The position numbers were made by a program, and so were the translations under genes. Shown here in pieces: positions 31,872-60,435 of a stretch of 64,000 bases of DNA (positions are counted from its first letter, which is position 1; the number at the start of each line of letters is the position of its first letter). The notes under the pieces are model-generated. The model saw nothing but the letters and a program-made list of their open reading frames with translations, was not told where the DNA came from and searched no databases. Source of the stretch: an uncultured Pseudomonadota bacterium (GTDB lineage: Bacteria; UBA10199; GCA-002796325; CAYWXY01); NCBI GenBank assembly GCA_964462555.1, contig CAYWXY010000001.1, positions 1,577 through 65,576 of the forward strand. Reading direction: 5' to 3'.

Positions 31872-31883
31872 CGTTTTTATTAA

Positions 31884-32362
<479 letters not shown>

Positions 32363-32363
<1 letters not shown>

Positions 32364-33993: not shown

Positions 33994-34000
33994 TGAAAAA

Positions 34001-34112
34001 TACAAATTACAAGCACCAAATCACAAACAAATTCCAATATACAAATTACGAATGTTGTTTGTTTTGGTCATTGTGATTTGTCTATTGTTTGTAATTTGGA
34101 AATTGTAATTTG
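34001..34112. repeat. About 110-nt imperfect palindrome (AC-rich arm / GT-rich arm; CAAATTACAA...TTGTAATTTG) in the ntpF-ntpA intergenic region
   Basis: Arm 34003-34030 pairs with 34085-34112 (24 of 28 bases complementary); repeated CAAAT(T/C)ACAA motifs. Confidence 0.6.
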
Positions 34113-34123
34113 AGATTTTTATA

Positions 34124-35881: not shown

Positions 35882-35891
35882 CGAGGAGCAT

Positions 35892-37286
35892 ATGGAGAAG
35901 GTTTACAAAACAACCGTTAGCATTTCCGGCCCACTCATTATGGTGGAGGATGTCGCCGGGGTCAAATACGACGAACTTGTTCAGGTCAAGACGGCGTCCG
36001 GAGAGCTTCGGAATGGCAAGGTCTTAGAGGTGGATCGGGATAAGGCCCTTGTTCAGGTCTTTGAGGGGACCGATAGTCTCGATATCAACAAGACCGAGAT
36101 TCGTTTTCAGGGGCGTGGTCTTCAATTTGGTCTGTCGCCCGATGTCATCGGTCGAACGTTTGATGGCCTCGGCCGCCCGATCGATGGGATGCCGCCATTG
36201 GTTGCCGACAAGAGCCTCGACATTAACGGAAACCCAATTAATCCCTATTCACGCAACTATCCTAATGACTTTATTCAGACCGGAATTTCATCGATCGATG
36301 GCATGAATACACTATCACGTGGTCAAAAGCTTCCGATTTTTTCGGCCTCCGGTCTCCCTCACCCTCGCGTTGCAGCGCAAATAGCTCGGCAGGCAAAGGT
36401 CTTAAAGGGCAAGGGAGAGTTTGCCGTTGTCTTTGCGGCCATGGGCATTACGTTCGAAGAGGCCGAATATTTTATGAGTAGCTTTCGAAAGACCGGCTCG
36501 ATCGAACGGGCTGTCCTCTTTTTGAATTTGGCCAACGATCCGGCCATCGAGCGAATTGCCACGCCAAAGATGGCGCTGACGACAGCCGAATATTTGGCCT
36601 TCGATTTAGGGATGCATGTCCTCGTTATTTTGACCGACATGACCAACTATTGTGAATCACTTCGCGAAGTCTCGGCCGCACGCAAAGAGGTCCCTGGCCG
36701 CCGCGGATATCCCGGTTATCTATATACCGATTTGGCCACAATGTACGAACGGGCCGGTCGAATCAAGGAACGGGAAGGTTCGATCACCATGATTCCCATT
36801 CTCACGATGCCGGAAGATGACAAGACCCACCCCATTCCCGATTTGACAGGGTATATTACAGAGGGGCAGCTCATTTTGTCGCGCGAACTGCATCAGAAGG
36901 GAATCTATCCGCCAATGGATGTGTTGCCATCGCTCTCCAGGCTCAAAGATAAGGGCATTGGGCCCGGGAAGACACGCGAAGATCACCCCGATCTTTCGAA
37001 CCAGCTCTTTGCGGCTTATACGAAGGGGCGCGAGGTACGAGAGCTAGTCGTCATCTTGGGTGAGGAGGCACTCAGCGATCTGGATCAGATCTATCTCAAA
37101 TTTGCTGATGCCTATGAAAAAGAGTTTATCGAACAGGGAGACGATGAACGCTCGATTGAAGACACTCTTGCGATCGGATGGGAACTCATATCGATGATTC
37201 CAGAGGAAGAGCTTCGTCGGATCAAGCCGGAGCTCATTGAGAAATATATGCATAAAAAAGTTGATAGTGCGGAAGTTCAGAAGTGA
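35892..37286 (+). CDS. ntpB: V-type ATPase subunit B
   Basis: About 465 aa; [18 protein letters not shown]...; [21 protein letters not shown] conserved B-subunit motifs. Confidence 0.92.
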
Positions 37287-37346
37287 GGAAGTTGATATAA
37301 TAGATGTCATCCTCCGGCGTGACCGGAGGATCCAGGGAGAGAAACA

Positions 37347-37973
37347 GTGGAGATAAGAGTCAGCGCCACACGAATGGAGTTGTTGAAGCTCAAGCGAAAG
37401 CTTGCCTTGGCCCAGCGCGGACATAAGCTTTTGAAGGACAAGCTCGATGGCCTCATTCAGAACTTCATTAAGACTAGCAAGGAACTCCGGACAACATATA
37501 ATGACTTGACCGAAGAGCTGAGCGTCTCGCTGTCTCACGGTATTTTGCTTGCAAAAGAGGTCGACCGGCAGTCATTAACGGCCGCCCTCACCTCCCCCTC
37601 CCTTGATCCAAAGGTGGAGCGTTCAACAAAAAATCTTATGGGTGTTCGTACGCCAAAGCTCGACTTGACGATCGGCGAGGAGTGGCAATCGTTTGGTCCC
37701 ACGTTTTTCTCAGAAAAATTCTTAAAGACGGTTGAGCAATATAAGGATCTCCTGCCCAAGATGCTTTTGATGGCCGAAAAATATAAAACACTTCAGAAAG
37801 TCGGCCGAGAAATCGTCGAAATCAAACGCCGCGTCAATGCCCTCGAATATGTCCTGATCCCGAGCCTCGAAGACAAGGTTCGCTATATCCGAATGAAGCT
37901 CGGTGAGATCGAACGCAGCACGACCGTCGGCCTCCTCAAGATCAAAGAACTCGTCCAATCAAACAGAGGTTAA
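37347..37973 (+). CDS. ntpD: V-type ATPase subunit D (central stalk); GTG start
   Basis: 208 aa; TRMELLKLKRKLALAQRGHKLLKDKLDGL typical NtpD N-terminus. Confidence 0.85.
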   Translation: MEIRVSATRMELLKLKRKLALAQRGHKLLKDKLDGLIQNFIKTSKELRTTYNDLTEELSVSLSHGILLAKEVDRQSLTAALTSPSLDPKVERSTKNLMGVRTPKLDLTIGEEWQSFGPTFFSEKFLKTVEQYKDLLPKMLLMAEKYKTLQKVGREIVEIKRRVNALEYVLIPSLEDKVRYIRMKLGEIERSTTVGLLKIKELVQSNRG

Positions 37974-42587: not shown

Positions 42588-43082
42588 ATGGGGGAGACAC
42601 TCTATCTTGCGTTATTGAATCTCGGACTGATTGTTGCCGGGGCCTACCTTTTAAGTCGCGGCAGAGTAAAGAGGTTCATAAAAAACCGATATATAATGAT
42701 TATGGCTCAGAGAAGGAACGTTGAGGCCGATCTTGGGGAGGCGAAGGCCAACAACAAGACCTTTCGGGCGCGAATGGAATCGATCCGGGACGATATCGAT
42801 CAGGCACTTGAAGATGCAGAGGTTGCCGGGGAGCACGACGGAAAAAAAATGCTAATCGATGCAGAAATAATGGCCGATCAAATTATTGGTAGATCGATGC
42901 AGCGGGCAGACCACGAAATCATGAAAAAGGATCGAGAATTTTATCACGACCTTGTTGAACGCTATGTTGAAGAAGTTGAGCAACAACTTAAGGGAAAGAC
43001 AACGCTGGAACAGCAGGTTCGTTGGGGGAAAAAGATATTAAGAAAAATTGAGGCCGGGGAGAGAAGAAGCGATGGACGCTAA
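42588..43082 (+). CDS. atpF: F0F1 ATP synthase subunit b
   Basis: N-terminal TM LYLALLNLGLIVAGAYLL then charged coiled coil; precedes atpH. Confidence 0.7.
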   Translation: MGETLYLALLNLGLIVAGAYLLSRGRVKRFIKNRYIMIMAQRRNVEADLGEAKANNKTFRARMESIRDDIDQALEDAEVAGEHDGKKMLIDAEIMADQIIGRSMQRADHEIMKKDREFYHDLVERYVEEVEQQLKGKTTLEQQVRWGKKILRKIEAGERRSDGR

Positions 43083-43632
43083 GATTGTCGGCAGACGATA
43101 TGCCGCAGCACTATATCGTCTGGCAAAGAAAGAACGGATTGAATATCGGCTCGAGACCGAGTTGAAGATGATTCAATGTCAGATTGAGGAATATCCCGAT
43201 TGGGGAGCACTTCTTGCTGATCACTTCATGCCGTCCTCTGAAAAATGTCTCATGTTGGATGAATTTGCAGGTGTTTCTGGGATTCATCGACACACACTAG
43301 CGCTCCTTAAAGTCCTTGTTGAAGAACGTCGGGTGGTCGTTTTTGAGGAAATTTATAAGGCCTTTAATAAGATGTGGCGGGAGGGGCGCGGAGAGATAGA
43401 GGTTGTTGTAACGGCAGCGCATCCAGAAGTTTTGGTTGAACTGAAAGAGGATATCCAAAAAACGCTTTACTCTGTGGGGAAAAGGTCGCCCATCGTTCGG
43501 GGAAAAGTAGATCCAGAGATTATAGGGGGTCTTCGTATTAAAATTGGCGATGTTGTTTATGATGGAAGTATTCGGGAACAACTCAAGAAGGTGCGGCGAG
43601 ACCTCCTTGTCGCGGCTGAGGCGGTTTCTTAA
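43072..43632 (+). CDS. atpH: F0F1 ATP synthase subunit delta (OSCP)
   Basis: RYAAALYRLAKK N-terminus and C-terminal GGLRIKIGDVVYDGSIREQL typical of delta. Confidence 0.8.
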   Translation: MDAKIVGRRYAAALYRLAKKERIEYRLETELKMIQCQIEEYPDWGALLADHFMPSSEKCLMLDEFAGVSGIHRHTLALLKVLVEERRVVVFEEIYKAFNKMWREGRGEIEVVVTAAHPEVLVELKEDIQKTLYSVGKRSPIVRGKVDPEIIGGLRIKIGDVVYDGSIREQLKKVRRDLLVAAEAVS

Positions 43633-43647
43633 CCAGCGGGGAATGAA

Positions 43648-45147
43648 ATGACATTAAAAATCAATGAAGTAAGCGAGTTGATCGAGCGACAGATCGAAAA
43701 TTATGGTCAATACATTGCGAAGGAAGAGGTGGGTGAGATTATCTCCGTGGGTGATGGTATTGCCCGCATTCATGGTTTGACGAAGGCGATTTCGGGCGAG
43801 CTTCTCGAGTTTCCGAATAACATTCGAGGAATGGTGCTAAATCTCGAAGAAGACAATGTCGGTGCCGTGATTATGGGCAATGATGAATTGTTGCGTGAAG
43901 GGGATGAGGTCAGGCGGACCGGAGAGGTGGTATCGGTCCCAGTAGGGGACGCGCTTCTCGGTCGCGTTGTTGACGCCCTGGGGCGGCCTCTTGATGGTAA
44001 GGGGCAACTACGGGCAAGCGAGCATCGTCCCGTTGAGTCAGAGGCCCCAGGAATTATTGATCGTCAACCGGTATCGGAGCCTCTTGAGACCGGAATCAAG
44101 ATCGTTGATGCCCTAACACCAATCGGACGGGGCCAGCGGGAGCTCATTATTGGCGATCGGCAAACGGGGAAAACGGCAATCGCAATTGATGCGATCATCA
44201 ATCAAAAAGGGCGTGATGTTTGCTGTATCTATGTGGCCATTGGTCAGAAGATGTCGACCGTAGCTCGCGTTGTGGACAAGTTAACACAGATGGGGGCCAT
44301 GGCCTACACCACCGTCATCAATTCATCAGCATCCGATCCAGCGCCACTCCAATTTCTAGCACCATACAGCGGGGCGGCCATGGGTGAACACTGGCGCGAC
44401 GATGGGAAACATGTCTTGATCATCTATGACGATCTTTCAAAACATGCGGTGGCCTATCGACAAATTTCACTCTTGCTTAGACGTCCACCAGGGCGGGAGG
44501 CCTATCCCGGCGATGTCTTTTACCTTCATTCACGTCTCCTCGAGCGTTCTGCAAAGATGAACGATGCGCTCGGCGCAGGATCGCTAACGGCCCTGCCTAT
44601 CGTCGAAACACAGGATGGTGATGTCACAGCCTATATTCCGACAAATATTATTTCGATGACCGATGGTCAAATTTACCTAGAGCCAGATCTCTTTTATGCG
44701 GGCGTTCGTCCCGCGATGAATGTCGGTCTTTCAGTTTCACGAGTAGGGGGGGCTGCACAGAGCGCGGCAATGAAAGAGGTTGGCGGACAGCTTCGAATCG
44801 AGCTTGCGCAATATCGGGAGTTGGAGAGTTTTTCACAATTTGGTGGAGAACTTGACTTGGCGTCGAGAAAAAAGTTGGCACGTGGGCAAATATTGATAGA
44901 GGTCTTGAAGCAGAACCAGTTTGTACCCCTTTCGTCAGGCCTTCAGGTGATTCATCTCTATGCGGCGGTTCATGGCTGGTTGGACCATACTCCAGTTCAA
45001 CAGATAAAGGACCGAATGACGAAACTTTCTTCATTTATTACAAAGACAAACAAAGAAATTATTGCCGAAATCGAGACAAAGGGCGAATTGGACAGTTCGA
45101 TTAAGAAGTCGATTGACGAAATACTCGGAAGTTTTCAGTGGGGATAG
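43648..45147 (+). CDS. atpA: F0F1 ATP synthase subunit alpha
   Basis: Walker [19 protein letters not shown]; 499 aa; canonical alpha motifs. Confidence 0.95.
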
Positions 45148-45150
45148 ACC

Positions 45151-46032
45151 GTGCAGAAGCTTAAGGAAATAAAAAAACGGATTCGATCGGTCCAGTCGAC
45201 GATGAAGATTACGGGCGCGATGCGGATGATCTCAATATCCAAGCTCCGGGCAGCCCAGGGAAATGCAGAACGCTCCAGACTTTACTGTGATGGACTGAGA
45301 GATATAGCCCTCAGAATTGCAGCCAAAAGCAATGGTGAGGGGCACCCAGCTCTACTTCTGAAGTCAAACCCCAAAAAAGCAACACTGGTTGTGATCGCTT
45401 CTCAGAAGGGGTTCTGTGGAAACCTAAACGAGAATCTCTTTAATCAGATCAACCATTTTGTCCAAATGATGGAAGATCGTGGCACACACATGACAACGTT
45501 CGTCGCTGGGGCAAAGGGTTTTCGGCACTTCTCAAAGGGACAAATTGAATGTGAGCGGCTGGATGTGGGGATTGAGGATCTCCTCGTAAAGATTAAGCTC
45601 GAGGGGATTTGCCGACACCTGCTGCAGCTCTATCTTTCAGGCGAAACCGATCAGATTTTTTTGGCCTACCAGGGGTTTGAATCAATCACACGCCAGAGGG
45701 TCGAGCTGGAAATGTTTTTGCCAATCTGGGTTCGAGAGAGTGAAAGACCGAAGACTGGGAGTACAGTCGACTATCTTTACGAGCCATCAAAAGATGATGT
45801 GGTTGATATGCTTATTCAAAAAACACTTCGTTCAACTTTCTTTCAAGCCCTCTTGGAGAGCTGGGCGTCAGAATTGGCCGCCCGAATGGTGACGATGGAT
45901 CAAGCGCTGAGAAATGCACGTGATGTTGTGGGTCAGCTGACAAAGCAATATCATCATGTTCGACAAACGGTTATTACACGGGATCTGCTGGATATTGTCG
46001 GTGGGGCCGAGGCACTTCGAAATCAACAGTAA
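45151..46032 (+). CDS. atpG: F0F1 ATP synthase subunit gamma (GTG start)
   Basis: LKEIKKRIRSVQSTMKITGAMRMISISKLRAAQ N-terminus; conserved C-terminal helix. Confidence 0.92.
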   Translation: MQKLKEIKKRIRSVQSTMKITGAMRMISISKLRAAQGNAERSRLYCDGLRDIALRIAAKSNGEGHPALLLKSNPKKATLVVIASQKGFCGNLNENLFNQINHFVQMMEDRGTHMTTFVAGAKGFRHFSKGQIECERLDVGIEDLLVKIKLEGICRHLLQLYLSGETDQIFLAYQGFESITRQRVELEMFLPIWVRESERPKTGSTVDYLYEPSKDDVVDMLIQKTLRSTFFQALLESWASELAARMVTMDQALRNARDVVGQLTKQYHHVRQTVITRDLLDIVGGAEALRNQQ

Positions 46033-47448
<1,416 letters not shown>

Positions 47449-51565: not shown

Positions 51566-51622
51566 GGGGTCTGGATCCCATTGTGTCACTTTAATATAGT
51601 GAAACAATGGGTGCCTGACCCC
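51566..51622. repeat. Intergenic hairpin flanked by GGGGTCTG...ACCCC (same outer motif as the 23712/48785 elements) enclosing a 13-bp-stem inverted repeat CCCATTGTGTCAC/GTGAAACAATGGG
   Basis: Read directly; lies between the esterase stop and the metallophosphoesterase RBS. Confidence 0.45.
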
Positions 51623-51631
51623 GGAGGTAAT

Positions 51632-52180
51632 ATGAAGATTGGTGTCATCAGCGATAGTCACGGTGAGCTTAATATGCTCAAAGAGGCCATCAATCATATG
51701 GTGGATAGACACCATATTGATGCGTTGATTCATCTGGGTGACGACTCAACTGATCTGAAGATCATCGGCAATCCTCCTATCGATATTTATTGGGTCCCCG
51801 GTCTTTACGAAGATCGATATAAAAACGAAGCCATTGAGAATCGTCAAATTATCGAATTTGAAGGGATTCCTTTTCTTCTGACGCATTCACCCACCATCGA
51901 TTCGCACGATTTGCCGGGTGATATCGATCCGAGAGAAGCGATAGAAGATGGGGATGTGCAGGTTGTGTTGTATGGCCACCTGCATCGGTGGCGAATCGGC
52001 GAAGAAAAAGAGGTTGTTGTTATTAATCCAGGCCACCTGACACCTCAAGGAAGTCAAACCAGCAAAGGTCTTCCCCCGAGCTATGCACTTTTGGATGTGT
52101 CCTCTAGAAAACTTGAAGTGAAAATAATGTCACTCACCGATGAGGTGGAGGCAGAAAAAACGTTTTTCTTTGAAGTCTAG
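51632..52180 (+). CDS. Metallophosphoesterase, YfcE/MJ0936 family
   Basis: MKIGVISDSHG..., GDDSTD, HSPT, VVLYGHLHRW motifs; GGAGGT RBS. Confidence 0.8.
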   Translation: MKIGVISDSHGELNMLKEAINHMVDRHHIDALIHLGDDSTDLKIIGNPPIDIYWVPGLYEDRYKNEAIENRQIIEFEGIPFLLTHSPTIDSHDLPGDIDPREAIEDGDVQVVLYGHLHRWRIGEEKEVVVINPGHLTPQGSQTSKGLPPSYALLDVSSRKLEVKIMSLTDEVEAEKTFFFEV

Positions 52181-52182
52181 TC

Positions 52183-53589
52183 TTAGGTAAGTTCGAACTT
52201 TTCCAGATATTTTGGGATGATTGTCTGGATCCCCTTGAAATTCTGATCAATCAAAACCTTCATAGCGGCTACAGATTCCTCTTCACCATGAACCAGGAAG
52301 ATTGTTCGAGGAGGTCTATTGAAAGTTCCAAGCCACTGAATGATGTCATCTCGATCACCATGCGCGGATAGCGATTCAATAAACTCAAGATGACAATTGA
52401 TGCCGACCGGTTGACCGTGAATCTTTAGTGCCTTGGCACCATCAATGATCGCCCTGCCGCGAGTGCCCGCCGCCTGAAAACCGACAATAACAAGGCAAGA
52501 CTTTGGGTCTCCAGCATAGGCCTTTAAATGATGGAGAATTCGTCCGCCGGTCATCATGCCGCTCGCAGAAAGGATAATCGCTGGCCCTTCTAGTTTGTTA
52601 AGCGCCTTTGAATCGACCTCATCATGAACATAGTGAAGGTTGGGCATTCGAAATATATTGGGGTCATGTTCATCGCTCGAAATGAGATGTTCCTTGGAGT
52701 AATGGGTATAAATAGCCGTGGCGTCAATACCGAGGGGTGTATTCAGGTAGATGGGAACCGAAGGCGGAATTCGTTTTTCCTGGCTCAGTCGTTTAAGAAT
52801 ATAGAGAATTTCTTGTGTTCGGCCAACGGCAAAGGCCGGAATCAGGACCTTTCCTCCTCGGGCAACGGTTTCCTTGATGAGCTTTTCAAATCGGTCAAAA
52901 ATATCCTCTTCAGGATGACTGTGAGCTCCATAAGTTGATTCCAAAACAAGATAATCAATATCCCGTTCAATGGTTGAAGGGTCGTGCGTAATCAATGAGC
53001 CATACCGACCAATATCTCCGGCAAAAAGGATCGTTTTTGCCGTCTTGTCTTCCATCGCAATTTCAACAAAGCGCGAGCCCAAAATATGGCCCGCTCGGTG
53101 CATTCGCAATGTGATGTTATGGCCGATTGGAATGTCAGTATTATCCGGGGCGGCCTTGAAATAGGAAAATGTATCCAGTGCATCTTGATATGTATAGAGG
53201 GGGAGGGCCGGATGGTGCTTTGAAAATCCCTTTTTCGATGCATACTTGGTATCTTCCTCTTGAAGGTAGCCAGAATCGGGAAGGAGAATTTTACAAAGTT
53301 CAATCGTTGGTTGACTGGCTAAGACATCGCCATGAAATCCATTTTTGATAAAGAGGGGAAGGTAACCACTATGATCGATATGCGCATGCGTGAGAATAAC
53401 GCTCTTAACATCTTTAGGCGCCAGTGGAAGTGGAGACCAATTCTTTAGACGCAGTTCCTTGAGGCCCTGAAAGAGACCGCAATCGACCATCCAACTATTG
53501 GCACCGCTGGACAGAAGAAATTTTGAACCAGTGACTGTTTCTGTAGCCCCTAGAAACTGCAACGTGGTACTACTACTCGTTCTCCGCAT
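52183..53589 (-). CDS. MBL-fold metallo-hydrolase of the beta-CASP family (RNA-metabolising nuclease)
   Basis: ILTHAHIDHSGYLP (HxHxDH), LESTYG, HLSAHGD C-terminal motif; 468 aa. Confidence 0.75.
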   Translation of the reverse strand: MRRTSSSTTLQFLGATETVTGSKFLLSSGANSWMVDCGLFQGLKELRLKNWSPLPLAPKDVKSVILTHAHIDHSGYLPLFIKNGFHGDVLASQPTIELCKILLPDSGYLQEEDTKYASKKGFSKHHPALPLYTYQDALDTFSYFKAAPDNTDIPIGHNITLRMHRAGHILGSRFVEIAMEDKTAKTILFAGDIGRYGSLITHDPSTIERDIDYLVLESTYGAHSHPEEDIFDRFEKLIKETVARGGKVLIPAFAVGRTQEILYILKRLSQEKRIPPSVPIYLNTPLGIDATAIYTHYSKEHLISSDEHDPNIFRMPNLHYVHDEVDSKALNKLEGPAIILSASGMMTGGRILHHLKAYAGDPKSCLVIVGFQAAGTRGRAIIDGAKALKIHGQPVGINCHLEFIESLSAHGDRDDIIQWLGTFNRPPRTIFLVHGEEESVAAMKVLIDQNFKGIQTIIPKYLEKFELT

Positions 53590-53676: not shown

Positions 53677-55896
53677 TTACGAAAGAGTCTCCCGGTTGGG
53701 TCGGGCTTGATAATCCTGTGATACAATAATGTCGGCGCTCCTTTTGAGATTTTGAATGATATGATGTTCAATCTCGAGAACCTTAAGGATGAAGTTGAAA
53801 TCCTGATCTGGATCACGGGCTCTGTTTCGTTCCTTGATCTCTTCAATTCGCTTGGTGTAGTCCGACTCAAGAAAAACCTTAAGCGTGATATTTTTGAGTT
53901 TCAAACCATATGTTAAATCAACAAGGATCACATCACGCCCCGTTATATCGGCCGGAACATTATCGTATCGCCGGGATCCCAGGCTGCGGCAATCAGACGG
54001 GACAAAAAGGGTCGTGGTTTTGCAATCGATCGCAGCACCTAGAATGCTATCCAAACGGTCCAGGTCGACCTCTTGGGGACCAAGATAATCTGTCAACTTT
54101 CCATCGTCATATGCCTTTAGACGAGCATGATGGTTTTCTGCAGGAGGTTTCTTAAAAAAAGCATCACCTGGTAGGGTCATTCCCCAGATCTTCTCTTGGC
54201 GTAGGCGATAGCGCAAAAATTCTGCAATCTCCGTCTTGCCAGCACCCGACTCTCCGCCCAGAGCAATGGAGACACGTTGACCAGAGGCACGCGCCTTTTT
54301 AACGGCTTCCTTAATGTAGGGAAGAAGACCCTCTGCAGCCTGTTTATGTTTTGGACGAATAATTGGCGGATCGCCCCGCCATGCAAATGATAGACGATGA
54401 TAGGCGCGGCCGTCACGTTGCATCATGACCGTATCAAATGTTTTCGATGGATTATCGACATCAACAACCTCATCCTGACAAAGACGGTCCAGGACTTGTC
54501 CTTGAAGGCGAGCAATACCCAGCCAACTAAAGGCCTCTTTGGCACGCTTAAATCCATTCATGGATAAAAGTTTAAGTTCTCCCGGGTCCCCCGATTTTTC
54601 GACAAGACGTTTTGCTGCAGCGGCTGGATCCTCGGGGTCGACAATGATGGCATTTACGCCATCTGTTAGCCAACGTGAAATTCCCGCATTTTTTGAGATG
54701 ACAACGGGAGCGCCAGCGGCCATGGCCTCTGCGACGCCCATTCCAAAGGGTTCCATCATCTGCATGCCGACATAAAAGAGACAATTGTGCGCCAGAACCG
54801 AAAGGACTTCCCAACCTTCACTGGGTATTCGAACGACATGAGCATCGGTCAAGTCATAACGTTGCATCATCTTCTTGATTTCTTCCTCAACATGCAGCTC
54901 TTCATCCATCGGTTTCTTTGGGTCACCCCCCACCAAGACAAGCTTCATCGACTTGAATCGTTCTGGATCAAGACGCCGGGTTTCACCGAAAACAGCGACA
55001 ACGCCCGGAATATTTTTGGCCTCAGAAAAACGACCAAAAAAGAGCATGTAACGGTTCGGACTTAAGCCAAGGGGTTTTAAAATGTCGAGCCTTGCACGCT
55101 TACTTCGATAAGCGTCAAAGAAATATTGTCCGGCCCCGGCCGGCATGATCAGGTGAGGGTACGCAGCATTATAATATTCTTTAAGAACCGCAGGTTCAGC
55201 AGGCGTATTGGCGATCTCAAGATTGGCTCCATGTAGGGCGGTAAATTCAAAACTTTCACGCGTCCAAAAGTTATACTGATCGTCAAGCCATGTTTCTGGG
55301 TCGAGTGGATCAAAGCCAAGATTAAGAACCTTCTTGATCCCTATAGAATGTGGGATGACAACTGTTGGAACCTTCAGTCGCTCGCCAACCTCAACCGATC
55401 CGGCCATTCCGTCGGCATAGTGCCCCATAACAGTATTTGCATTAAAGAGGAGTGAGATTGCCACCTCGGCCTCGGCCATCTCTGGAACAAGAGGGTAAAT
55501 GTCCTCTTTTCGGACAAATTTGTCGCCGCCGGCCTGAATCCGAACCAACCAGACATTCTTTCCGAACTGTTCGACACGCGGGTAGGGCTTGAACCACCGA
55601 GCAAGAATAATAACTTTTCGACCCTGCTTAGCCCAGGCCTTGGAGGTCTCAAGGACGTAATAGGTTTGGCCACCGGTATCTGGTACGCCTGCCGGGGGTG
55701 GATCCCCCCAATAGCCATGTGTCGAGATCATGACAATACGGTCTGCACGAGTCGTCGCACGGCGCTTGCGAACGACTGGAATGCCATGTTCCTGGAATAA
55801 CTGGAAATATTCTTCTAAAAGTGAAGGCGAAAGGTCATAACGTTTAGCCAAGGTGTTAAGCCATCGTCTACTTGCATCATCTATTATTGTCCCCAT
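53677..55896 (-). CDS. Bifunctional protein: SPS-like GT4 glycosyltransferase (N-terminal, about 480 aa) fused to a C-terminal P-loop PRK/uridine-kinase-family kinase domain
   Basis: GT: ISTHGYWGDPPPAGVPDTGGQTYYVLE (sucrose-phosphate-synthase-type DTGGQ motif), EPFGMGVAEAMAAGAPVV. Kinase: VSIALGGESGAGKTEIAEF Walker A, VILVDLTYGL, KVFLESDYTKRIEEIKERNRARD (uridine-kinase-like D..RL.RR..RD). Confidence 0.7.
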   Translation of the reverse strand: MGTIIDDASRRWLNTLAKRYDLSPSLLEEYFQLFQEHGIPVVRKRRATTRADRIVMISTHGYWGDPPPAGVPDTGGQTYYVLETSKAWAKQGRKVIILARWFKPYPRVEQFGKNVWLVRIQAGGDKFVRKEDIYPLVPEMAEAEVAISLLFNANTVMGHYADGMAGSVEVGERLKVPTVVIPHSIGIKKVLNLGFDPLDPETWLDDQYNFWTRESFEFTALHGANLEIANTPAEPAVLKEYYNAAYPHLIMPAGAGQYFFDAYRSKRARLDILKPLGLSPNRYMLFFGRFSEAKNIPGVVAVFGETRRLDPERFKSMKLVLVGGDPKKPMDEELHVEEEIKKMMQRYDLTDAHVVRIPSEGWEVLSVLAHNCLFYVGMQMMEPFGMGVAEAMAAGAPVVISKNAGISRWLTDGVNAIIVDPEDPAAAAKRLVEKSGDPGELKLLSMNGFKRAKEAFSWLGIARLQGQVLDRLCQDEVVDVDNPSKTFDTVMMQRDGRAYHRLSFAWRGDPPIIRPKHKQAAEGLLPYIKEAVKKARASGQRVSIALGGESGAGKTEIAEFLRYRLRQEKIWGMTLPGDAFFKKPPAENHHARLKAYDDGKLTDYLGPQEVDLDRLDSILGAAIDCKTTTLFVPSDCRSLGSRRYDNVPADITGRDVILVDLTYGLKLKNITLKVFLESDYTKRIEEIKERNRARDPDQDFNFILKVLEIEHHIIQNLKRSADIIVSQDYQARPNRETLS

Positions 55897-55984
55897 GCTC
55901 TATTGATGACAAAAAGGGTCACTCCTGTCAACAGGGTCTAATTTAATTGACGCGTAGGTGCGAAGCCGCTAAATTAACAAAACG

Positions 55985-57034
55985 ATGGTATTCAAATCCC
56001 TCAGGATTGCGCACGTGGCACCACTCTTTGCCAGTATTCCACCGCTGAAATATGGTGGAACCGAACGGGTTCTGGATTGGTTGATCCGCGCGCAACTAGA
56101 AAAAGGTCATGATGTGACCCTCTTTGCCAGTGGCGATAGTCAAACCCAGGCAAAGTTGGTTTCGGCCATCCCGGAAGCGATGTGGAATTCTGGAGGAAGC
56201 GAATTCCCTAATATTTATCATACAATTGAACTTGATATGTTGCTCAGACGGGCCGAAGAATTCGATGTCATCCACTTTCACTTCAATTTTATGCATCTGC
56301 AGGCGGTTCATATTATCAAAAAACCGCTCATTTCAACATTACATTGGCGGGTTGATCTCAAGGAATTTCAGGATCTCTATAACTATTTTACTGATGTGCC
56401 ATTGGTTGCAATTAGCGAATCCCAGAAATCATATATTCCCCAGGCAAATGTTGTTGATGTCGTCTACCATGGTTTGCCATTGGAAGATTATCATTTTTGT
56501 CCAGGGCCGGGAGAATATTTGGCCTTTGTTGGGCGCTTCAGTGCCATAAAAGGACCTCATATTGCCCTTGAGGTGGCCAGACGCGTCGGAATTCCACTGA
56601 AAATCGCAGCTCGAATTCCCGAAGAAGAAGAGGATCGAAAATATTTCGAAAATACGATCAAGCCAATGTTGGAAGGCCCGAATGTTGAATATGTTGGTGA
56701 GTTAGATGAGAAGGAAAAGATTCCCTTCATGGGAAAAGCCCTGGCTACACTGATTCCCACCTGTTGGCCGGAGCCCTTTGGTCTGGTAACGATCGAGTCG
56801 TTGGCGGTCGGAACGCCGGTCGTTGTCTACCCAATGGGTGGGACAAAAGAGATTGTTGAAGACGGCGTTAATGGGTTTGCCGTAAATTCTGTGGATGAGA
56901 TGTGTGATGCGGTTAAAAGAATTGGGGAAATAAGTCGAAAGACATGTCGACAACACGTCGAGGACAAATTTTCTTCTAAGGGAATGGCCGCAGCCTATGA
57001 TAAGATCTATCATCAACTTATTGATAAATGTTGA
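55985..57034 (+). CDS. Glycosyltransferase family 4 (group 1)
   Basis: IAHVAPLFASIPPLKYGGTERVLDWL N-terminus; EPFGLVTIESLAVGTPVV EX7E-type motif. Confidence 0.8.
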   Translation: MVFKSLRIAHVAPLFASIPPLKYGGTERVLDWLIRAQLEKGHDVTLFASGDSQTQAKLVSAIPEAMWNSGGSEFPNIYHTIELDMLLRRAEEFDVIHFHFNFMHLQAVHIIKKPLISTLHWRVDLKEFQDLYNYFTDVPLVAISESQKSYIPQANVVDVVYHGLPLEDYHFCPGPGEYLAFVGRFSAIKGPHIALEVARRVGIPLKIAARIPEEEEDRKYFENTIKPMLEGPNVEYVGELDEKEKIPFMGKALATLIPTCWPEPFGLVTIESLAVGTPVVVYPMGGTKEIVEDGVNGFAVNSVDEMCDAVKRIGEISRKTCRQHVEDKFSSKGMAAAYDKIYHQLIDKC

Positions 57035-57042
57035 GGGGGAGT

Positions 57043-57693
57043 ATGAAGTTTCATGCCGCGATCTTTGATATGGATGGCGTCGTCGTTGACACCGTTCCCA
57101 TTCACTTTGCTGCCTGGAAGAGAATGTTTGAAGAGCACGGGCACCCATTTACATTCGATGAATACAAAGAAAAAGTCGACGGGATTCCACGAATCGACGG
57201 AACGCGAAATGTTCTAACGGACTTGAGCGAAGAAGAGATTCAAAAAGCAGCGGCACAAAAACAGGAATATTTTTCAGAGGAAATTGAAAAAACAAAAATT
57301 CCGATCTACGATTCAACAGTCAAATTAATCGATAATCTGCAAAAAAATGGGATTAAAGTTGCCGTTATTTCAGCATCAAAGAATGCCCCGCTAATTCTAA
57401 CACGAATAGGCCTGATTGACCGTCTTGACGCTACTGTAAATGGCAATGACGTGACACGAGGGAAGCCGGATCCTCAGGTTTTTTTGATGGCTGCCGAGCG
57501 GTTGGACGCATCTGCTAATCAGTCCATAGTCTTTGAGGACGCGGTTTTGGGGGTGGAGGCGGCCAAACGTGCAGAAATGAAATGTATTGGCATTGATCGA
57601 TATGGGGAACCGGAGAGACTTAAAGAGGCTGACCATGTTGTGAGCGATCTTTCTGAGGTGACGATCGAGACAATCGAAGCTCTATTTTCTTAG
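57043..57693 (+). CDS. pgmB: Beta-phosphoglucomutase (HAD superfamily)
   Basis: AAIFDMDGVVVDT HAD motif I; SASKN motif II; GKPDPQVF; FEDAVLGVEAAKRAEM motif IV. Confidence 0.8.
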   Translation: MKFHAAIFDMDGVVVDTVPIHFAAWKRMFEEHGHPFTFDEYKEKVDGIPRIDGTRNVLTDLSEEEIQKAAAQKQEYFSEEIEKTKIPIYDSTVKLIDNLQKNGIKVAVISASKNAPLILTRIGLIDRLDATVNGNDVTRGKPDPQVFLMAAERLDASANQSIVFEDAVLGVEAAKRAEMKCIGIDRYGEPERLKEADHVVSDLSEVTIETIEALFS

Positions 57694-57702
57694 TGGGTAT
57701 GG

Positions 57703-60012
57703 ATGGGGAATATGGGAAAGCGCATATTTGATGATCTTCTGTCATCGGAAGAATGGCTGATTGAGCAGAAGGGGTGGGCGAGGCCCTTACAGCAGATTCG
57801 CGAAGCGCAGTTTACGTTGGGAAATGGTCTTATCGGCTCTCGAGGCATTTTAGAAGAACTCCCCTACGATGCAAACGCCGGAACATTCGTTGCCGGCATC
57901 TTTGATCGCGTGGGAGCCAAGATTCCAGAGTTAGTCAACCTTCCAAACCCGGTCGTTTTTCGAATAGATGTTGAGGGCGAGAAAGTCGATCCAGCAGCGA
58001 TGGACATTATGAGCCACTATCGAGCCCTTGATATGCGGAAGGGCCTTCTGGTTCGCCACACCCGATATAAATCGGCGCTAAAAAAACGAATTGATTATCA
58101 ATCGTATCGATTTGTTGGAATGTACCAAAAATTTATCGGGGCAATGGTCGTTTCCATATCGCCACTCGACGAAGATATGACATTCAACGTTCTCTCGACG
58201 GTTGATACGTCGGTGTGCAATCGGGGGTTTCTGACTGAGGGGCGCAAGCGTCACTACGAAGTGACCGCCATCGCAAAGGGGAAGATTGGAAATTATACCG
58301 AGGTTCAGACTTTTGAACATCGTCATATTATCGGGTATGCAACGTGCGTAGAGATTGAACATAAAGGAAGGCGAAAGGTTATTCCCGACAAAAGTTTTGT
58401 CGTACGGGTTAAAAAGGGGGAAAGGGCAACATTTGTTCGATATTTTACGATTGTACCGTCATTCTACGTTAAGGGAGACATCAAAAAGGTGGCCACCAAA
58501 GAGCTGACGCGTGGTCGAAATTTGGGCGTCAAGCGCCTCTTTGGAGCGCACGAGCGTGAGTGGAGCGAAAAATGGAAAATGGCAGATATCGTGATGGAAG
58601 GTTCCGACATCCGCCAGAAGGCCGTTCGTTTTAATCTATATCACTTGATAATTTCGGGGCATCACGATGATCGTATCAGTATCGGTGCGCGAACCTTAAG
58701 TGGGGAGGGATACCGTGGGCATATTTTCTGGGATGCCGAAACATTCATCTACCCCTTCTTCCTCTACACGAATCCGCGTATTGCGCGAAGTATGCTGATG
58801 TATCGATATAATCGCCTGGATCCCGCCCGTCAGATAGCGGCGGCCAAGGGGTATAAGGGAGCACTTTTTCCATGGGAATCGGCAGCGTCGGGAGAGGAGA
58901 CAACGCCGGCATGGTTTAAGGATTTAGCAGGCGAGGTTTTGAAAATCGAAACACTCGAAGAAGAACACCATATTGTGGCCGATATCGCCTATGCCATTCA
59001 CCAGTATGTAAGGGCAACCGGAGACGACGCCTTTATGGTCAATTGTGGCCTGGAGATGCTCTTGGAGACAGCTCGTTTTTGGGCATCAAGAGTGATTTAT
59101 AATAAAAAGAAAAAGCGATATGAAATGCACCACATCATGGGACCCGACGAGTTTCATTCGGGAACGAACAATAATACATTTACGAGCATAATGGCCCGCT
59201 TCAATATGCAAGTTGCCCAGAAGTGGTATCAGTGGGTTAAAAAACATAAGCCGGCCAAGTTAAAGAGCCTTGTTAAAAAAATTGGGTTTAAAGAGGCGGA
59301 GATGAAGAAATGGCGGGAAATATCGCAGAAAATATTCCTGCCTTATTCGAAGACAAAAAAGATTTACGAGGAGTTTGAAGGGTATTTTAAATTAAAGGAT
59401 GTTCGGATCACGCAGCTTGATCAAAATTTCATGCCAATCGTTCCTCATCAGGCACAGCCCGTTGAGGATGGAAAAACACAAATGATCAAGCAGGCCGATG
59501 TTGTCATGTTCTTATATATGCTATACGATCAGTTTTCGCCGGCCGAAGTTAAGCGTAACTTTAAGTATTACGAAAAAAGAACGCTGCATAAATCATCGCT
59601 CAGTCCGTCGATCTATGCATTGATGGCCGCGCGCGTGGGCGCCATGGAAAAAGCTCTAAACTATCTTACGATTGCTGCGCATGCCGATCTGATGGATGTG
59701 CATGGAAACGCCGCTGAGGGCTTTCACGGCGCGTCGGGGGGTGGTGTGTGGCAGGCAATGGTCATGGGTTTTGGTGGGCTGGATGTTCGAGAGGATCGGA
59801 TTTGTTTTAAACCAATACTTCCCACGCTCTGGAAGTCGCTCTCTTACAAAATTATGTCTCACGGCGCGAGAATTGCGGTGAAGGTTTTGCCGAAGGAAAT
59901 CCATATAACACGCGAAACAGCGGGACATCGAAAAAATGTTATTGTTGAGGCTGGGGGCGTTGCCAAGCAGCTCAAAAAAGGAAAGACAGTTAAGTTGTTG
60001 CACGATAGTTAG
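57703..60012 (+). CDS. Glycoside hydrolase family 65 disaccharide phosphorylase (maltose/trehalose/kojibiose phosphorylase-like)
   Basis: 769 aa; catalytic-region signature GHIFWDAETFIYPFFLYTNP...KGALFPWESA; N-terminal beta-sandwich plus (alpha/alpha)6 barrel layout. Confidence 0.85.
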   Translation: MGNMGKRIFDDLLSSEEWLIEQKGWARPLQQIREAQFTLGNGLIGSRGILEELPYDANAGTFVAGIFDRVGAKIPELVNLPNPVVFRIDVEGEKVDPAAMDIMSHYRALDMRKGLLVRHTRYKSALKKRIDYQSYRFVGMYQKFIGAMVVSISPLDEDMTFNVLSTVDTSVCNRGFLTEGRKRHYEVTAIAKGKIGNYTEVQTFEHRHIIGYATCVEIEHKGRRKVIPDKSFVVRVKKGERATFVRYFTIVPSFYVKGDIKKVATKELTRGRNLGVKRLFGAHEREWSEKWKMADIVMEGSDIRQKAVRFNLYHLIISGHHDDRISIGARTLSGEGYRGHIFWDAETFIYPFFLYTNPRIARSMLMYRYNRLDPARQIAAAKGYKGALFPWESAASGEETTPAWFKDLAGEVLKIETLEEEHHIVADIAYAIHQYVRATGDDAFMVNCGLEMLLETARFWASRVIYNKKKKRYEMHHIMGPDEFHSGTNNNTFTSIMARFNMQVAQKWYQWVKKHKPAKLKSLVKKIGFKEAEMKKWREISQKIFLPYSKTKKIYEEFEGYFKLKDVRITQLDQNFMPIVPHQAQPVEDGKTQMIKQADVVMFLYMLYDQFSPAEVKRNFKYYEKRTLHKSSLSPSIYALMAARVGAMEKALNYLTIAAHADLMDVHGNAAEGFHGASGGGVWQAMVMGFGGLDVREDRICFKPILPTLWKSLSYKIMSHGARIAVKVLPKEIHITRETAGHRKNVIVEAGGVAKQLKKGKTVKLLHDS

Positions 60013-60054
60013 CCAGCCGTAGGCTGGTCCGCCTCTGGCGGAAAGGAGGTCGTC

Positions 60055-60435
60055 ATGATCCTGGTTAAAGAAATGATGAATAAAAAAGTGGTTTCTATTA
60101 AGTTGACGGATGGCGTGAAGAAAATCTGTCAGATTCTTACTAAAAATATAATTACCGGCGTTCCGGTAGTTGATAATAAAAAAGAAATTCTTGGTTTCGT
60201 TTCAGAGCGAGACATCATTGCAGCCGTTAATAAGCCAAACTTCATGAAAAAAGTGGCAAAGGATCTAATGGTTAGGGATGTTTATACGGTTGAAGATAGT
60301 GTAAGTCTTAATGAGGTCTCCATGATTTTTTCAAAAGAGATTTTCCGGCATCTTCCCGTGACACGGAAGGGAAAGCTTGTTGGGATTATTACGCGAAAAG
60401 ATATCATCAACCAAATGCTCGGACACTATTACTGA
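60055..60435 (+). CDS. CBS-domain pair protein
   Basis: Two CBS repeats (VVSIKLTDGVKKICQILTKNIITGVPVV...; VYTVEDSVSLNEVSMIFSKEIFRHLPVT...). Confidence 0.8.
   Translation: MILVKEMMNKKVVSIKLTDGVKKICQILTKNIITGVPVVDNKKEILGFVSERDIIAAVNKPNFMKKVAKDLMVRDVYTVEDSVSLNEVSMIFSKEIFRHLPVTRKGKLVGIITRKDIINQMLGHYY

Follow-up and report, generated by a model that had tools for sequence, protein, structure and literature searches.

A sucrose-phosphate-synthase-like glycosyltransferase fused to a PRK/uridine-kinase-fold kinase beside glucosylsucrose-type genes

What would a glycosyltransferase (GT) resembling sucrose-phosphate synthase (SPS) do with a kinase at its C-terminus? The question is raised by a gene at 53677–55896 on the minus strand of the 64,000-nt stretch of DNA analysed here (the window). 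It encodes 739 aa plus a stop, with zero internal stops, in the order SPS-like GT4 domain, ordered linker, and P-loop kinase of the PRK/uridine-kinase (Udk) fold; domain-wise profile searches placed GT4 models in the N-terminal part and PRK/Udk models in the C-terminal part. The earlier note on this DNA had proposed such a fusion but feared a read-through of two genes, with an overlooked stop between 54400 and 54500. Translation was clean across the domain junction (54340–54561), and the identical protein, with the same neighbours, was located on four independent metagenome contigs besides the window. More than 120 full-length homologs (700–750 aa; 45–64% identity) kept every catalytic motif; all bore GESGxGK[ST], and GESGxGK, D578, the lid arginines, and the E-x7-E of the GT were invariant among them. 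Given the gene's presence on four other contigs and this number of conserved homologs, the fusion is no artefact; at the level of sequence, it is confirmed as a real, conserved bacterial enzyme. Close homologs were found in Thermodesulfobacteriota/Syntrophales-type MAGs, and a literature search found no paper on a GT4-kinase fusion.

Architecture of the fusion

The protein begins with a two-helix extension (aa 1–49; 55750–55896, minus strand; helices at aa 7–19 and 24–37 in the model) that precedes the GT-B core and is extra relative to SPS; sucrose synthase structures aligned with the fusion over 556–580 columns, exceeding the GT-B core alone. The catalytic domain (aa 50–470; 54487–55749, minus strand), delimited by structure matches and mapped residues, matched Glycos_transf_1 (aa 281–433, E 1e-18), GT-B_Sucrose_synth (aa 53–90), and the SPS N-domain of TIGR02472 (E 1e-33), the last with just 117 bits against a cut-off of 576. 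The nearest solved structures were SPS and sucrose synthase, led by the SPS of T. elongatus (TeSPS, tll1590, PDB 6kih; 90.7 bits) and H. orenii (HoSPS, PDB 2r60; 86.5 bits). Identity to SPS is about 24–27%, but the fusion has the same GT-B GT4 fold and DTGGQ loop and retains the catalytic His and Glu, the Arg/Lys and Glu that bind the nucleotide, and the two basic residues gripping the acceptor 6-phosphate; DTGGQ (aa 73–77), K130/R129, H183, R213, R289/K294, E382, and E390 are all invariant in A1. The phosphate of sucrose-6F-phosphate (S6P) is liganded in TeSPS by Arg105 and Arg178 (PMC7264703), which correspond to the invariant K130 (with R129) and R213 of the fusion, as the catalytic His158, Glu331, and Glu339 correspond to H183, E382, and E390. 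Because the acceptor-phosphate ligands of a solved SPS are retained, the earlier suggestion of a self-supplied phospho-acceptor is plausible. JGI pipelines label homologs mannosylfructose-phosphate synthase, another user of fructose-6-phosphate (F6P). As in bacterial SPS-SPP, the second domain is C-terminal; there it is a HAD-IIB phosphatase(-like) domain, here a kinase.

A conserved linker (aa 471–510; 54367–54486, minus strand), with invariant R501 and W506-R507-G508-D509, joins the two. The full-length AF2 model (pLDDT 92.2, pTM 0.91) fixed the arrangement of the domains, and the linker was ordered only when the GT was present (pLDDT about 89–95, versus <50 in a kinase-only model). Standalone relatives of the kinase start exactly at the GD motif of this linker.

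The kinase domain (aa 511–739; 53680–54366, minus strand) carries the Walker A motif GESGAGKT (aa 548–555; nt 54232–54255), the catalytic D578 (GDAFF), NH..R592, GP.E609, DLTY663, lid residues R690/R694, and E710-H711. More than 40 positions of the kinase part are invariant, among them the Lys of Walker A, D578 as the catalytic Asp of Udk type, and the arginines of the lid; the domain thus looks active, and the concern that it might be a pseudokinase falls away. Its P-loop region (about aa 540–735) matched PRK PF00485 (E 8.5e-4) and Udk TIGR00235 (E 4.5e-5), but it differs from the PF00485 family (UCK2, Udk, PRK, PanK, GLYK, 1rz3, FrcK-like 3c8u) in lying below the curated Udk, PRK, and PF00485 cut-offs. 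Unlike the UCK/PRK family, it shows the invariants N-terminal GD, GESG..GK[ST]E, GP.E, and EH, unconserved nucleoside-binding positions, and sugar enzymes as genomic partners. Compared with the standalone types (about 30% identity, 80–110 bits), the fusion-type kinase forms a separate subfamily, with its own Arg-rich loop, PSDCR..RRY, where the others have DKPLVIY; this loop could suit an anionic substrate. To our knowledge, no hexose kinase of the PRK/Udk fold has been demonstrated; FrcK bears the name 'fructose transport system kinase' only as a deposited label.

The divergent operon

The fusion gene is head-to-head with a second GT4 gene, GT4b, over an 88-bp spacer (55897–55984). Promoter-like matches on both strands of the spacer were no more frequent than in shuffled sequences, so we only infer that it is a shared regulatory region. 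GT4b (55985–57034, plus strand; 349 aa) matched the T. elongatus glucosylsucrose synthase (TeGSS, tll1591, PDB 7fg9/7fga/8x3q) over its full length with 282 bits and about 50% identity, keeping Tyr18, Arg179, and Lys184, with Phe in place of Trp10. It is thus a candidate alpha-1,2-glucosyltransferase, although its family is very large (7976 matches at E<=1e-30) and such identity is therefore no proof of sucrose specificity. The next gene, whose start overlaps the GT4b stop, encodes a HAD protein of 221 aa (57028–57693, plus strand) that by its sequence is a true beta-phosphoglucomutase (beta-PGM): it scored 186.5 bits on TIGR02009, above the cut-off of 153, and 113 bits over the full length of the L. 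lactis enzyme, with the catalytic Asp pair (DxD), R49, SASKN, K145, and ED kept. It is followed by a GH65 protein of 769 aa (57703–60012, plus strand), assigned to the kojibiose phosphorylase (KP) type of alpha-1,2-glucoside phosphorylase on 590 bits to the C. saccharolyticus enzyme (CsKP, 3wiq), versus 353 bits to GGP, and on the WET motif (FPWESA, KIET) and phosphate site (R, SS, H). The last gene encodes a stand-alone CBS-pair protein of 126 aa (60055–60435, plus strand; PF00571, E 1.5e-26), probably a ligand-sensing regulator, which holds the same position in two other loci (71 and 63% identity in L098 and L099). The four neighbours are what the earlier note took them to be. They form a conserved operon that recurs beside the fusion, the two together being conserved in L097 and L098; this context is no general property of the family, most members of which are orphan genes lacking the GSS/GH65 operon.

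An adjacent pair of SPS-type and GSS-type GT4 genes is also found in the cyanobacterial sucrose/glucosylsucrose pathway (tll1590 and tll1591; Nostoc alr1000). The organism of the window is not a cyanobacterium, however, its SPS-type enzyme bears a kinase, and its GSS-like gene is co-operonic with GH65, beta-PGM, and CBS genes, a degradative arm absent from the TeGSS paper PMC9909042. That arm resembles the catabolic KP and beta-PGM pairs of C. saccharolyticus and T. brockii in the WET motif of the +1 subsite, in the Arg, Ser-Ser, and His that bind phosphate, and in the adjacent beta-PGM; it differs in being co-transcribed with a biosynthetic alpha-1,2-glucosyltransferase and adjoining an SPS-like gene, an arrangement that speaks for an alpha-1,2-glucosylated substrate of endogenous origin and not for kojibiose taken up from outside. 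KP has been reported to transfer glucose onto O-2 of the glucose residue of sucrose (PMC1994063). The locus thus looks like a module for synthesis and phosphorolytic recycling, as first proposed, with the unspecified 'glucoside or compatible solute' of that proposal narrowed, on the TeGSS-like GT4b and the WET motif, to probably sucrose/glucosylsucrose. No SPP-type phosphatase or fructose-releasing enzyme was encoded in the locus or elsewhere in the 64,000-nt window.

Relatives of the kinase in other genomes

Standalone relatives of the kinase (about 215 aa) adjoined SPS/MshA-like GT4 genes at about 50 loci, from more than 10 phyla and with either gene first. The genome scan behind most of these counts ordered loci by how closely they matched the entire fusion, and is therefore biased towards such pairs; all three homologs picked solely for their long contigs likewise adjoined SPS/MshA-like GT4 genes. 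Independent fusions with the kinase ahead of the GT also occur (P0419, P0499). Enzymes that release free hexose, namely GH13 alpha-glucosidases and GH65-beta-PGM fusions, were fused to other members of the kinase family or encoded next to them, and alphaproteobacterial clusters held PGI or PFK, both F6P enzymes, and GlgC.

At two Magnetococcales loci (L061, L100) the kinase gene lies between an SPS-SPP gene, whose product passed both the TIGR02472 and TIGR02471 cut-offs, and a GH13_18 sucrose-phosphorylase-like gene. The slot between SPS-SPP and a sucrose-cleaving gene is the place of fructokinase in known sucrose clusters. Clusters with a PfkB fructokinase, of the sps-spp-frk-amylosucrase type, are known from Synechococcus PCC 7002 and methanotrophs (the title of a reference in PMC6753628). 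The Magnetococcales kinase shares this position but has the P-loop PRK/Udk fold, unrelated to the PfkB/ribokinase fold, and in the lineage of the window the kinase is covalently fused to the synthase. Since the kinase of the fusion belongs to a subfamily of its own, transfer of function from these sucrose loci is indirect.

Proposed pathway and its rivals

We favour, with a probability of only about 0.42, a bifunctional enzyme in which a sugar kinase, rigidly docked to a retaining GT, acts as a fructokinase that supplies F6P to the GT. Hexose kinase is the best-supported function of the domain, fructose the most likely substrate. The kinase would use ATP to phosphorylate the free hexose to F6P, which the GT, judging by its conserved phospho-acceptor pocket, would join with UDP- or ADP-glucose to form S6P. 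An unlinked phosphatase would free sucrose, to which GT4b would add alpha-1,2-glucose, giving glucosylsucrose; the GH65 phosphorylase would regain the added glucoses as beta-glucose-1-phosphate, and beta-PGM would convert this to glucose-6-phosphate, with the CBS protein as likely regulator. What we observed is the domain architecture and fold, the conserved catalytic and phosphate-binding residues, the fixed placement of the domains in the model, and the recurrent genomic coupling of the kinase family with SPS-like GTs and sucrose/alpha-glucoside enzymes; from these we infer the kinase substrate, direction of flux, and final product. The fusion beside glucosylsucrose-type genes points to an undescribed family of sugar kinases and to a natural role for kojibiose phosphorylase.

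The serious rival, although we consider it unlikely, is a disaccharide kinase that converts sucrose to S6P, with the GT in reverse forming NDP-glucose and F6P from S6P and UDP/ADP. A phosphatase would then be unnecessary, and at the loci inspected neither the fusion nor most kinase-GT pairs had a linked SPP. The kinase product would still be a ligand for the phospho-acceptor pocket, and the enzyme would permit an ATP-primed, bond-energy-conserving remobilisation of sucrose, e.g. that freed from glucosylsucrose by GH65. In Thermotogae and Bipolaricaulota, kinase-GT pairs have ABC sugar importers as neighbours, and such pairs also adjoin a DUF4922 GDPGP1-like candidate NDP-hexose phosphorylase; a TreC-like GH13 fused to one relative passed the phosphotrehalase-subfamily cut-off, and such enzymes take a phosphorylated disaccharide. 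GH13_18 includes S6P phosphorylases, and GH65 includes trehalose-6-phosphate phosphorylase. However, re-phosphorylation of sucrose at the two Magnetococcales loci would be futile cycling because the SPS there has an SPP-like domain, the presence of PGI and GlgC in alphaproteobacterial clusters suits synthesis from hexose phosphates, weak fusions of the kinase to GH100 (invertase-like) domains suit a hexose kinase better, and we know of no described sucrose kinase. Slightly less probable is a kinase acting on glucose, another hexose, or a polyol, so that the GT would make a different phosphorylated alpha-glucoside (e.g. glucosyl-glucose-6-phosphate); GT4b would then add alpha-1,2-glucosyl chains to that product instead of sucrose, and GH65 would shorten them. 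The low TIGR02472 score, partner GTs that in many cases score comparably as MshA-like, the distinct substrate loop of the fusion kinase, and possible variation of acceptor in the GT4b family all accord with this, as does glucose being what KP frees from kojibiose and what the GH65-beta-PGM and GH13 partners most commonly release. Against it stand the SPS and sucrose synthase relatives of the GT in both structure and sequence, the F6P-using enzyme named by JGI, the T. elongatus-like SPS-GSS pairing, and relatives in bona fide SPS-SPP and PGI contexts.

The two roles first suggested for the kinase fared poorly. A glycerate-3-kinase-type enzyme supplying 3-phosphoglycerate to a glucosyl-3-phosphoglycerate-type synthase, for a glucosylglycerate-like solute, is very improbable: GLYK matched only the N-terminal part of the domain (E 0.037), compared with uridine-cytidine kinases over its whole length (about 4e-7), the GH65 is not of the GGP type, GT4b is TeGSS-like, and all informative contexts, including the sucrose loci with PGI or PFK, point to hexoses or sucrose. 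The Arg-rich loop could bind a carboxylate or phosphate, and glucosylglycerate and glucosylglycerol phosphorylases are found in GH13_18 and GH65, but known glucosyl-3-phosphoglycerate synthases belong to GT81, not GT4. Equally hard to credit is phosphorylation of uridine, UMP, or UDP, whether recycling the GT by-product or easing UDP inhibition, even with uridine-cytidine kinases the closest solved relatives by profile and 'uridine kinase' the JGI label of some homologs. Orthology to uridine kinase was rejected: the domain scored 23 bits against Udk cut-offs of 180–220, and at the positions of Asp84, Tyr112, and His117 of UCK2, which we take to bind the nucleoside, its residues differ or are not conserved. 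The GH13, GH65, and sucrose-phosphorylase-like enzymes that related kinases have as fusion partners or as neighbours in gene clusters use no nucleotides.

The fusion protein and its two domains

The gene at 53677-55896 on the reverse strand is a single open frame of 739 codons, in which a GT4 glycosyltransferase resembling sucrose-phosphate synthase (SPS) is followed by a linker and a P-loop kinase. ORF calls and Pfam/NCBIfam searches agreed with the earlier note on the location and description of this gene and its neighbours. That note allowed that two genes might have been read through an overlooked stop. The junction segment (54340-54561) reads open, four independent metagenome contigs carry an identical protein beside the same genes, and full-length homologs number more than 120 in a search of 5.8 billion proteins; they are 700-750 aa long, share 45-64% identity, and belong to Thermodesulfobacteriota/Syntrophales, Myxococcota, Bdellovibrionota, Chloroflexota, and others. 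A read-through or sequencing artefact is therefore rejected. Most other members of the fusion family are orphan genes, without an operon of the type found in the window. A scan of metagenome contigs for close relatives of the fusion returned five loci only and added no context.

The GT4 region (approximately aa 50-465 by Pfam and NCBIfam) matched Glycos_transf_1 (PF00534, E 1e-18) and contains a sucrose-synthase-type first GT-B domain at aa 53-90. Against the SPS N-domain model TIGR02472 it scored 116.8 bits (E 1e-33), below the 576-bit equivalog-domain cut-off, as compared with 638-643 bits for the SPS of two Magnetococcales contigs (L061 and L100); by this curated cut-off it does not qualify as an SPS orthologue. 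The closest solved structures were TeSPS (6kih, 90.7 bits) and HoSPS (2r60, 86.5 bits), followed by sucrose synthases and MshA, and the top Foldseek matches of the fusion were SPS and sucrose synthase (SuSy). The GT-B GT4 fold, the E-x7-E motif, and the catalytic His are all present. Residue roles described for TeSPS in its co-crystal paper (PMC7264703) were mapped by alignment to 6kih, in which chain numbering equals paper numbering + 3. The catalytic His158 and Glu331 correspond to H183 and E382 of the fusion; Glu339, which binds the UDP ribose, to E390; Arg249, which binds the UDP phosphate, to R289; and Arg105 and Arg178, which hold the phosphate of sucrose-6-phosphate (S6P), to K130 (with R129 beside it) and R213. 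HoSPS also has Lys at the Arg105 position. All mapped functional residues are invariant in the fusion family, so that the domain looks like an active, retaining glucosyltransferase that uses a phosphorylated acceptor. At the N-terminus, a conserved two-helix extension (aa 1-49; 55750-55896, reverse strand) carries conserved E29, F34, and P40 and is absent from minimal SPS; alignments with SuSy structures span more columns than the GT-B core accounts for, a hint of an N-terminal element like that of SuSy.

The kinase domain occupies approximately aa 540-735 (Pfam and NCBIfam). Its assignment to the PRK/uridine-kinase fold in the earlier note was borne out, this being the P-loop kinase fold common to Udk, PRK, PanK, and GLYK. 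The fusion kinase scored 19.6 bits on PF00485, slightly below the gathering cut-off of 22, and matched Udk models at E about 4e-5 (TIGR00235, 23.2 bits, cut-off 220; NF004018, 23.1 bits, cut-off 180); its standalone relatives exceed the PF00485 cut-off and score 47-64 bits on the Udk models. An AF2 model of aa 488-739 was confident (pLDDT 87.7). When the kinase-family profile was searched against PDB sequences, human UCK1/2 ranked first over the entire domain (E about 4e-7), then 1rz3, PRK, and Thermus Udk; an FrcK-like protein (E 0.0025) and GLYK 6ckg (E 0.037) matched over the N-terminal part only. In the profile alignment, the columns of UCK2 Asp84, Tyr112, and His117, which we take to be nucleoside-binding positions, are variable or hold different residues. 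A uridine kinase orthologue was rejected on the low Udk scores (23 vs. 180-220 bits) and the lack of conservation at these positions, so the domain is a distinct clade of the PRK/Udk fold. The kinship with glycerate-3-kinase raised in the earlier note did not hold up, given the partial match of GLYK and its rank behind UCK, 1rz3, PRK, and Udk. FrcK was dropped as a precedent for a P-loop fructokinase, since a 2023 study (PMC10433430) concluded that it has no apparent substrate and that Frk is the fructokinase.

A degenerate kinase was also foreseen in the earlier note as a possibility. The motif GESGxGK[ST] is present in every full-length fusion homolog, more than 40 positions of the kinase part are invariant in a 36-sequence alignment, the Walker A Lys and lid arginines among them, and the invariant Asp of GDxFF falls on the column of the catalytic Asp in uridine-cytidine kinase. 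Given this invariance of the catalytic motifs, a pseudokinase is rejected.

The full-length AF2 model of the fusion had a mean pLDDT of 92.2 and a pTM of 0.91. The linker (aa 471-510) was modelled at pLDDT <50 with the kinase only and at about 89-95 in the full-length protein; it carries an invariant R501 and the motif WRGD (506-509), and the standalone kinases start exactly at the GD of this motif. In the model, the two domains are structurally coupled in a rigid arrangement. Among solved structures, none spanned both domains (query-normalised TM-score <=0.48).

Genomic partners of the kinase family

Searched exhaustively with an HMM, 1.84 billion representatives contained 656 kinase relatives at E<=1e-3, of which 328 reached E<=1e-10; clustered at 90% identity, the standalone family makes up more than 3,200 groups. 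Neighbourhoods were scanned in one genome per GTDB species, with loci ranked by similarity to the whole fusion, which biases the fraction of kinase-plus-GT loci upward. Standalone kinases of about 215 aa directly adjoin SPS/MshA-like GT4 genes in about 50 loci from Bacteroidota, Chloroflexota, Gemmatimonadota, Zixibacteria, Aminicenantes, Elusimicrobia, Thermotogae, Bipolaricaulota, Alpha- and Gammaproteobacteria, and others, usually in the order kinase then GT and at times in reverse. The pairing was also found in all three homologs picked solely for their long contigs. Databases name the fusion and kinase homologs variously as ‘glycosyltransferase’, ‘mannosylfructose-phosphate synthase’, ‘uridine kinase’, ‘zeta toxin family’, or ‘hypothetical’; the standalone kinases go under the last three of these names. 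Their consistent pairing with SPS-like GTs provides a functional hypothesis that can be tested directly and would correct mis-annotation that is widespread in the standalone family.

The kinase also occurs in other chains. Two independent fusions have kinase and GT in reverse order (P0419 and P0499; 216 and 161 bits on the SPS model), and P0420 (762 aa) joins the kinase to a TreC-like GH13 alpha-glucosidase. In P0422 and others (600-625 aa) the kinase follows an N-terminal domain weakly like GH100 (invertase); that identity is weak, with a partial Pfam match and no match among sequences of solved structures. The architectures of P0420, P0422, P0441, P0460, and P0473 include a 686-aa protein with a beta-lactamase-fold domain and a partial kinase match.

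Three kinase subfamilies can be distinguished (fusion type, main standalone type, and GH65-associated type), with scores of 70-117 bits between subfamilies and 175-255 bits inside the main standalone type. The third type accompanies single-chain fusions of beta-phosphoglucomutase (beta-PGM) with GH65, which in Bacteroidota and Anaerolineales are directly followed by one or two kinase genes. These chains measure about 1020-1075 aa (L067:729-3950, L068:6210-9275, L077:6713-9865, L080:943-4119, L073:1-1968), and their +1/phosphate motifs (FPWQSG, HGST) match none of the specificities in a 2024 GH65 review. Tandem kinase paralogs follow them at L068 (9280-9915 and 9995-10636), L073, and L080; the degenerate Walker A of the first copy (GEVDTGKA) suggests that the two form a catalytic/regulatory pair.

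Several neighbourhoods involve sucrose or hexose phosphates. The two Magnetococcales contigs encode, in order, MarR, SPS fused to its phosphatase (SPS-SPP), the kinase, and a GH13_18 sucrose-phosphorylase-like gene (TIGR03852, 329 bits, cut-off 334). Their SPS-SPP scored 638-643 bits on TIGR02472 (cut-off 576) and 293 on TIGR02471 (cut-off 210) and has the S6PP Pfam domain. In known sps-spp-frk-amylosucrase clusters, a PfkB fructokinase stands in the place that the kinase takes here. In Alphaproteobacteria and others, the kinase-GT pair lies with GlgC, DUF4922 (GDPGP1-like), and PGI or PFK, that is, beside enzymes of ADP-glucose and fructose-6-phosphate (F6P) metabolism. Clusters of PGI/PFK, DUF4922, kinase, SPS-like GT (about 472 aa), and GlgC were seen in SAR116, Rhodospirillaceae, Wenzhouxiangella, and Longimicrobiales (L101:5514-11400, L102:2160-8367, and L060, L063, L064, L069, L071, L072, and L079). 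The DUF4922 protein, a HIT protein like GDPGP1 and Ap4A phosphorylase, is possibly an ADP-glucose phosphorylase; a literature search on DUF4922 returned plant and animal GDPGP1 papers only.

Two further neighbours of fusion homologs deserve mention. In a Vitiosangium sp., a 716-aa protein directly downstream of the homolog (L003:12227-14377) joins the N-terminal, acceptor-binding half of a GT4 to a PF04185 phosphoesterase, and beyond it lie genes for a neutral ceramidase and another two GT4 enzymes; the phosphoesterase fusion could be the missing phosphatase of that lineage. On a Bdellovibrionota chromosome (L002/L010:12106-18339), a gene of about 2077 aa is convergent with the fusion homolog and had a weak Glycos_transf_1 match only.

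The divergent operon

Head-to-head with the fusion across 88 bp stands a four-gene operon on the forward strand: a second GT4 gene (GT4b, 55985-57034), a beta-PGM-type HAD gene that overlaps its stop (57028-57693), a GH65 gene (57703-60012), and a CBS-pair protein (60055-60435). The operon is kept at 57-71% identity in two other loci (L098 and L099), and the fusion divergently adjoins it in the window, L097, and L098. A promoter and terminator scan of the locus gave matches at chance level.

GT4b aligned over its full length with TeGSS, the cyanobacterial glucosylsucrose synthase tll1591 (PDB 7fg9/7fga/8x3q; 282 bits, about 50% identity). It keeps the catalytic Tyr18, Arg179, and Lys184 (Y23, GRFSAIKG), with Trp10 replaced by Phe15. 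At least 7976 proteins of similar identity belong to this family, so sucrose is a probable rather than certain acceptor, specificity being unreadable from sequence at this breadth.

The GH65 subfamily check proposed in the earlier note placed the enzyme with the kojibiose phosphorylases (KP), closest to that of C. saccharolyticus (3wiq, 590 bits). The WET +1 subsite (Trp391, Glu392, Thr417; FPWESA, KIET) and the phosphate site (Lys/Arg330, Ser631-Ser632, His675; GAR, HKSS, GFHGAS) are present, both hallmarks of kojibiose phosphorylase (2024 GH65 review, PMC11442529). KP of T. brockii is reported to use sucrose as an acceptor, adding glucose from beta-glucose-1-phosphate at O-2 of its glucose residue (PMC1994063), which is glucosylsucrose phosphorolysis in reverse.

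The HAD protein passed the subfamily model TIGR02009 (186.5 bits, cut-off 153), scored 160.4 on the equivalog TIGR01990 (cut-off 189.4), and had L. lactis beta-PGM as its best, full-length PDB match. It keeps the catalytic Asp pair (DxD), H20, R49, S114-N118, K145, and E169-D170 and is most likely a true beta-PGM; a disguised phosphatase is unlikely because the distal-phosphate residues of beta-PGM are conserved. No SPP or sucrose-cleaving enzyme was found within the 64-kb window. Scanning for HAD motifs turned up no SPP/HAD-IIB or other phosphatase of sugar phosphates there, with a pattern strict enough to miss even the beta-PGM, and Pfam scans of its unassigned ORFs for a phosphatase found only a Metallophos_2 protein (51581-52180) without a sugar link.

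Proposed route, alternatives, and setting

The best-supported model, to which we assign a probability of roughly 40%, is a fructokinase-type kinase feeding the fused SPS-like GT, with extension by the TeGSS-like GT4b and recycling by GH65 and beta-PGM. The reconstructed order of events would be as follows: a free hexose, in all likelihood fructose, is phosphorylated by the kinase; F6P is handed to the docked GT, which would yield S6P; an unlinked phosphatase would dephosphorylate it; GT4b would then add alpha-1,2-linked glucose; and GH65 with beta-PGM would recover the added glucoses as glucose-6-phosphate. What the analysis shows is the architecture, the fold, the conservation of catalytic and phosphate-binding residues, the rigid modelled placement of the domains, and the repeated genomic coupling; from these we infer the substrate, the direction of flux, and the product.

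The main rival, which we judge unlikely, has the kinase phosphorylate sucrose itself and the GT run in reverse; reversal would explain the absence of a linked SPP, and also the importers and the candidate NDP-hexose phosphorylase that lie beside some kinase-GT pairs. It is rather improbable that the route involves a different hexose or a different glucoside. Two proposals of the earlier note fare far worse: a glycerate kinase, for which the GLYK match was partial, is very improbable, and recycling of the nucleotide is equally hard to credit. Beyond the fructokinase-type model for this locus lies a wider and more speculative reading, which we regard as doubtful: that sucrose-type metabolism in bacteria has its own sugar kinase in this clade, which would stand in for the non-homologous PfkB fructokinase and has been fused independently to SPS-like GTs (in either order), GH13 alpha-glucosidases, and perhaps invertase-like domains. 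The fusion in the window would then convert fructose to S6P in one polypeptide and feed a non-cyanobacterial glucosylsucrose (alpha-1,2-glucan) cycle of reserve or compatible solute, in which recycling would be the physiological task of KP.

No published description of an SPS-kinase or SPS/uridine-kinase fusion, or of the kinase clade, was found in the literature; what is new is the kinase as domain partner of an SPS-like enzyme and a clade, probably sugar-specific, of a known kinase fold. To our knowledge, the partners of characterised sugar-phosphate synthases are phosphatases. That a synthase should instead be joined to a kinase, in a fusion that is conserved and rigid, implies another logic: the enzyme either supplies its own phospho-acceptor or runs in reverse after priming by ATP. 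Such a fusion would also give the PRK/Udk fold a new activity. We know of glucosylsucrose so far only as a cyanobacterial stress solute, and the physiological role of kojibiose phosphorylases has, in our assessment, been unclear. The locus suggests that uncultured anaerobic bacteria produce glucosylsucrose, extending the pathway beyond cyanobacteria and offering a candidate natural substrate for kojibiose phosphorylases. A single protein leading from fructose to S6P, together with the glucosylsucrose synthase/KP pair, could be put to use in making sucrose analogues and alpha-1,2-gluco-oligosaccharides enzymatically.

The window as a whole is an oriC-proximal housekeeping region with the dnaA end, yidC, mnmE/G, parAB, and V- and F-type ATPase operons; an Rfam scan of the window for riboswitches and regulatory RNAs gave no matches. 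By ORF layout and N-terminal sequences, the V-type and F-type operons (29602-37973 and 43048-47448, both forward) appear to lie within 20 kb of each other with parAB between them. A very long ORF of 2601 aa (3582-11387, forward) lies near the dnaA/yidC end. Adjoining the fusion is a beta-CASP metallo-beta-lactamase protein (52183-53589, reverse), syntenic in L097 at 72% identity; among NCBIfam models it scored best on the Cas14 model of type VII CRISPR systems (383 bits, cut-off 800), with aCPSF1 next.
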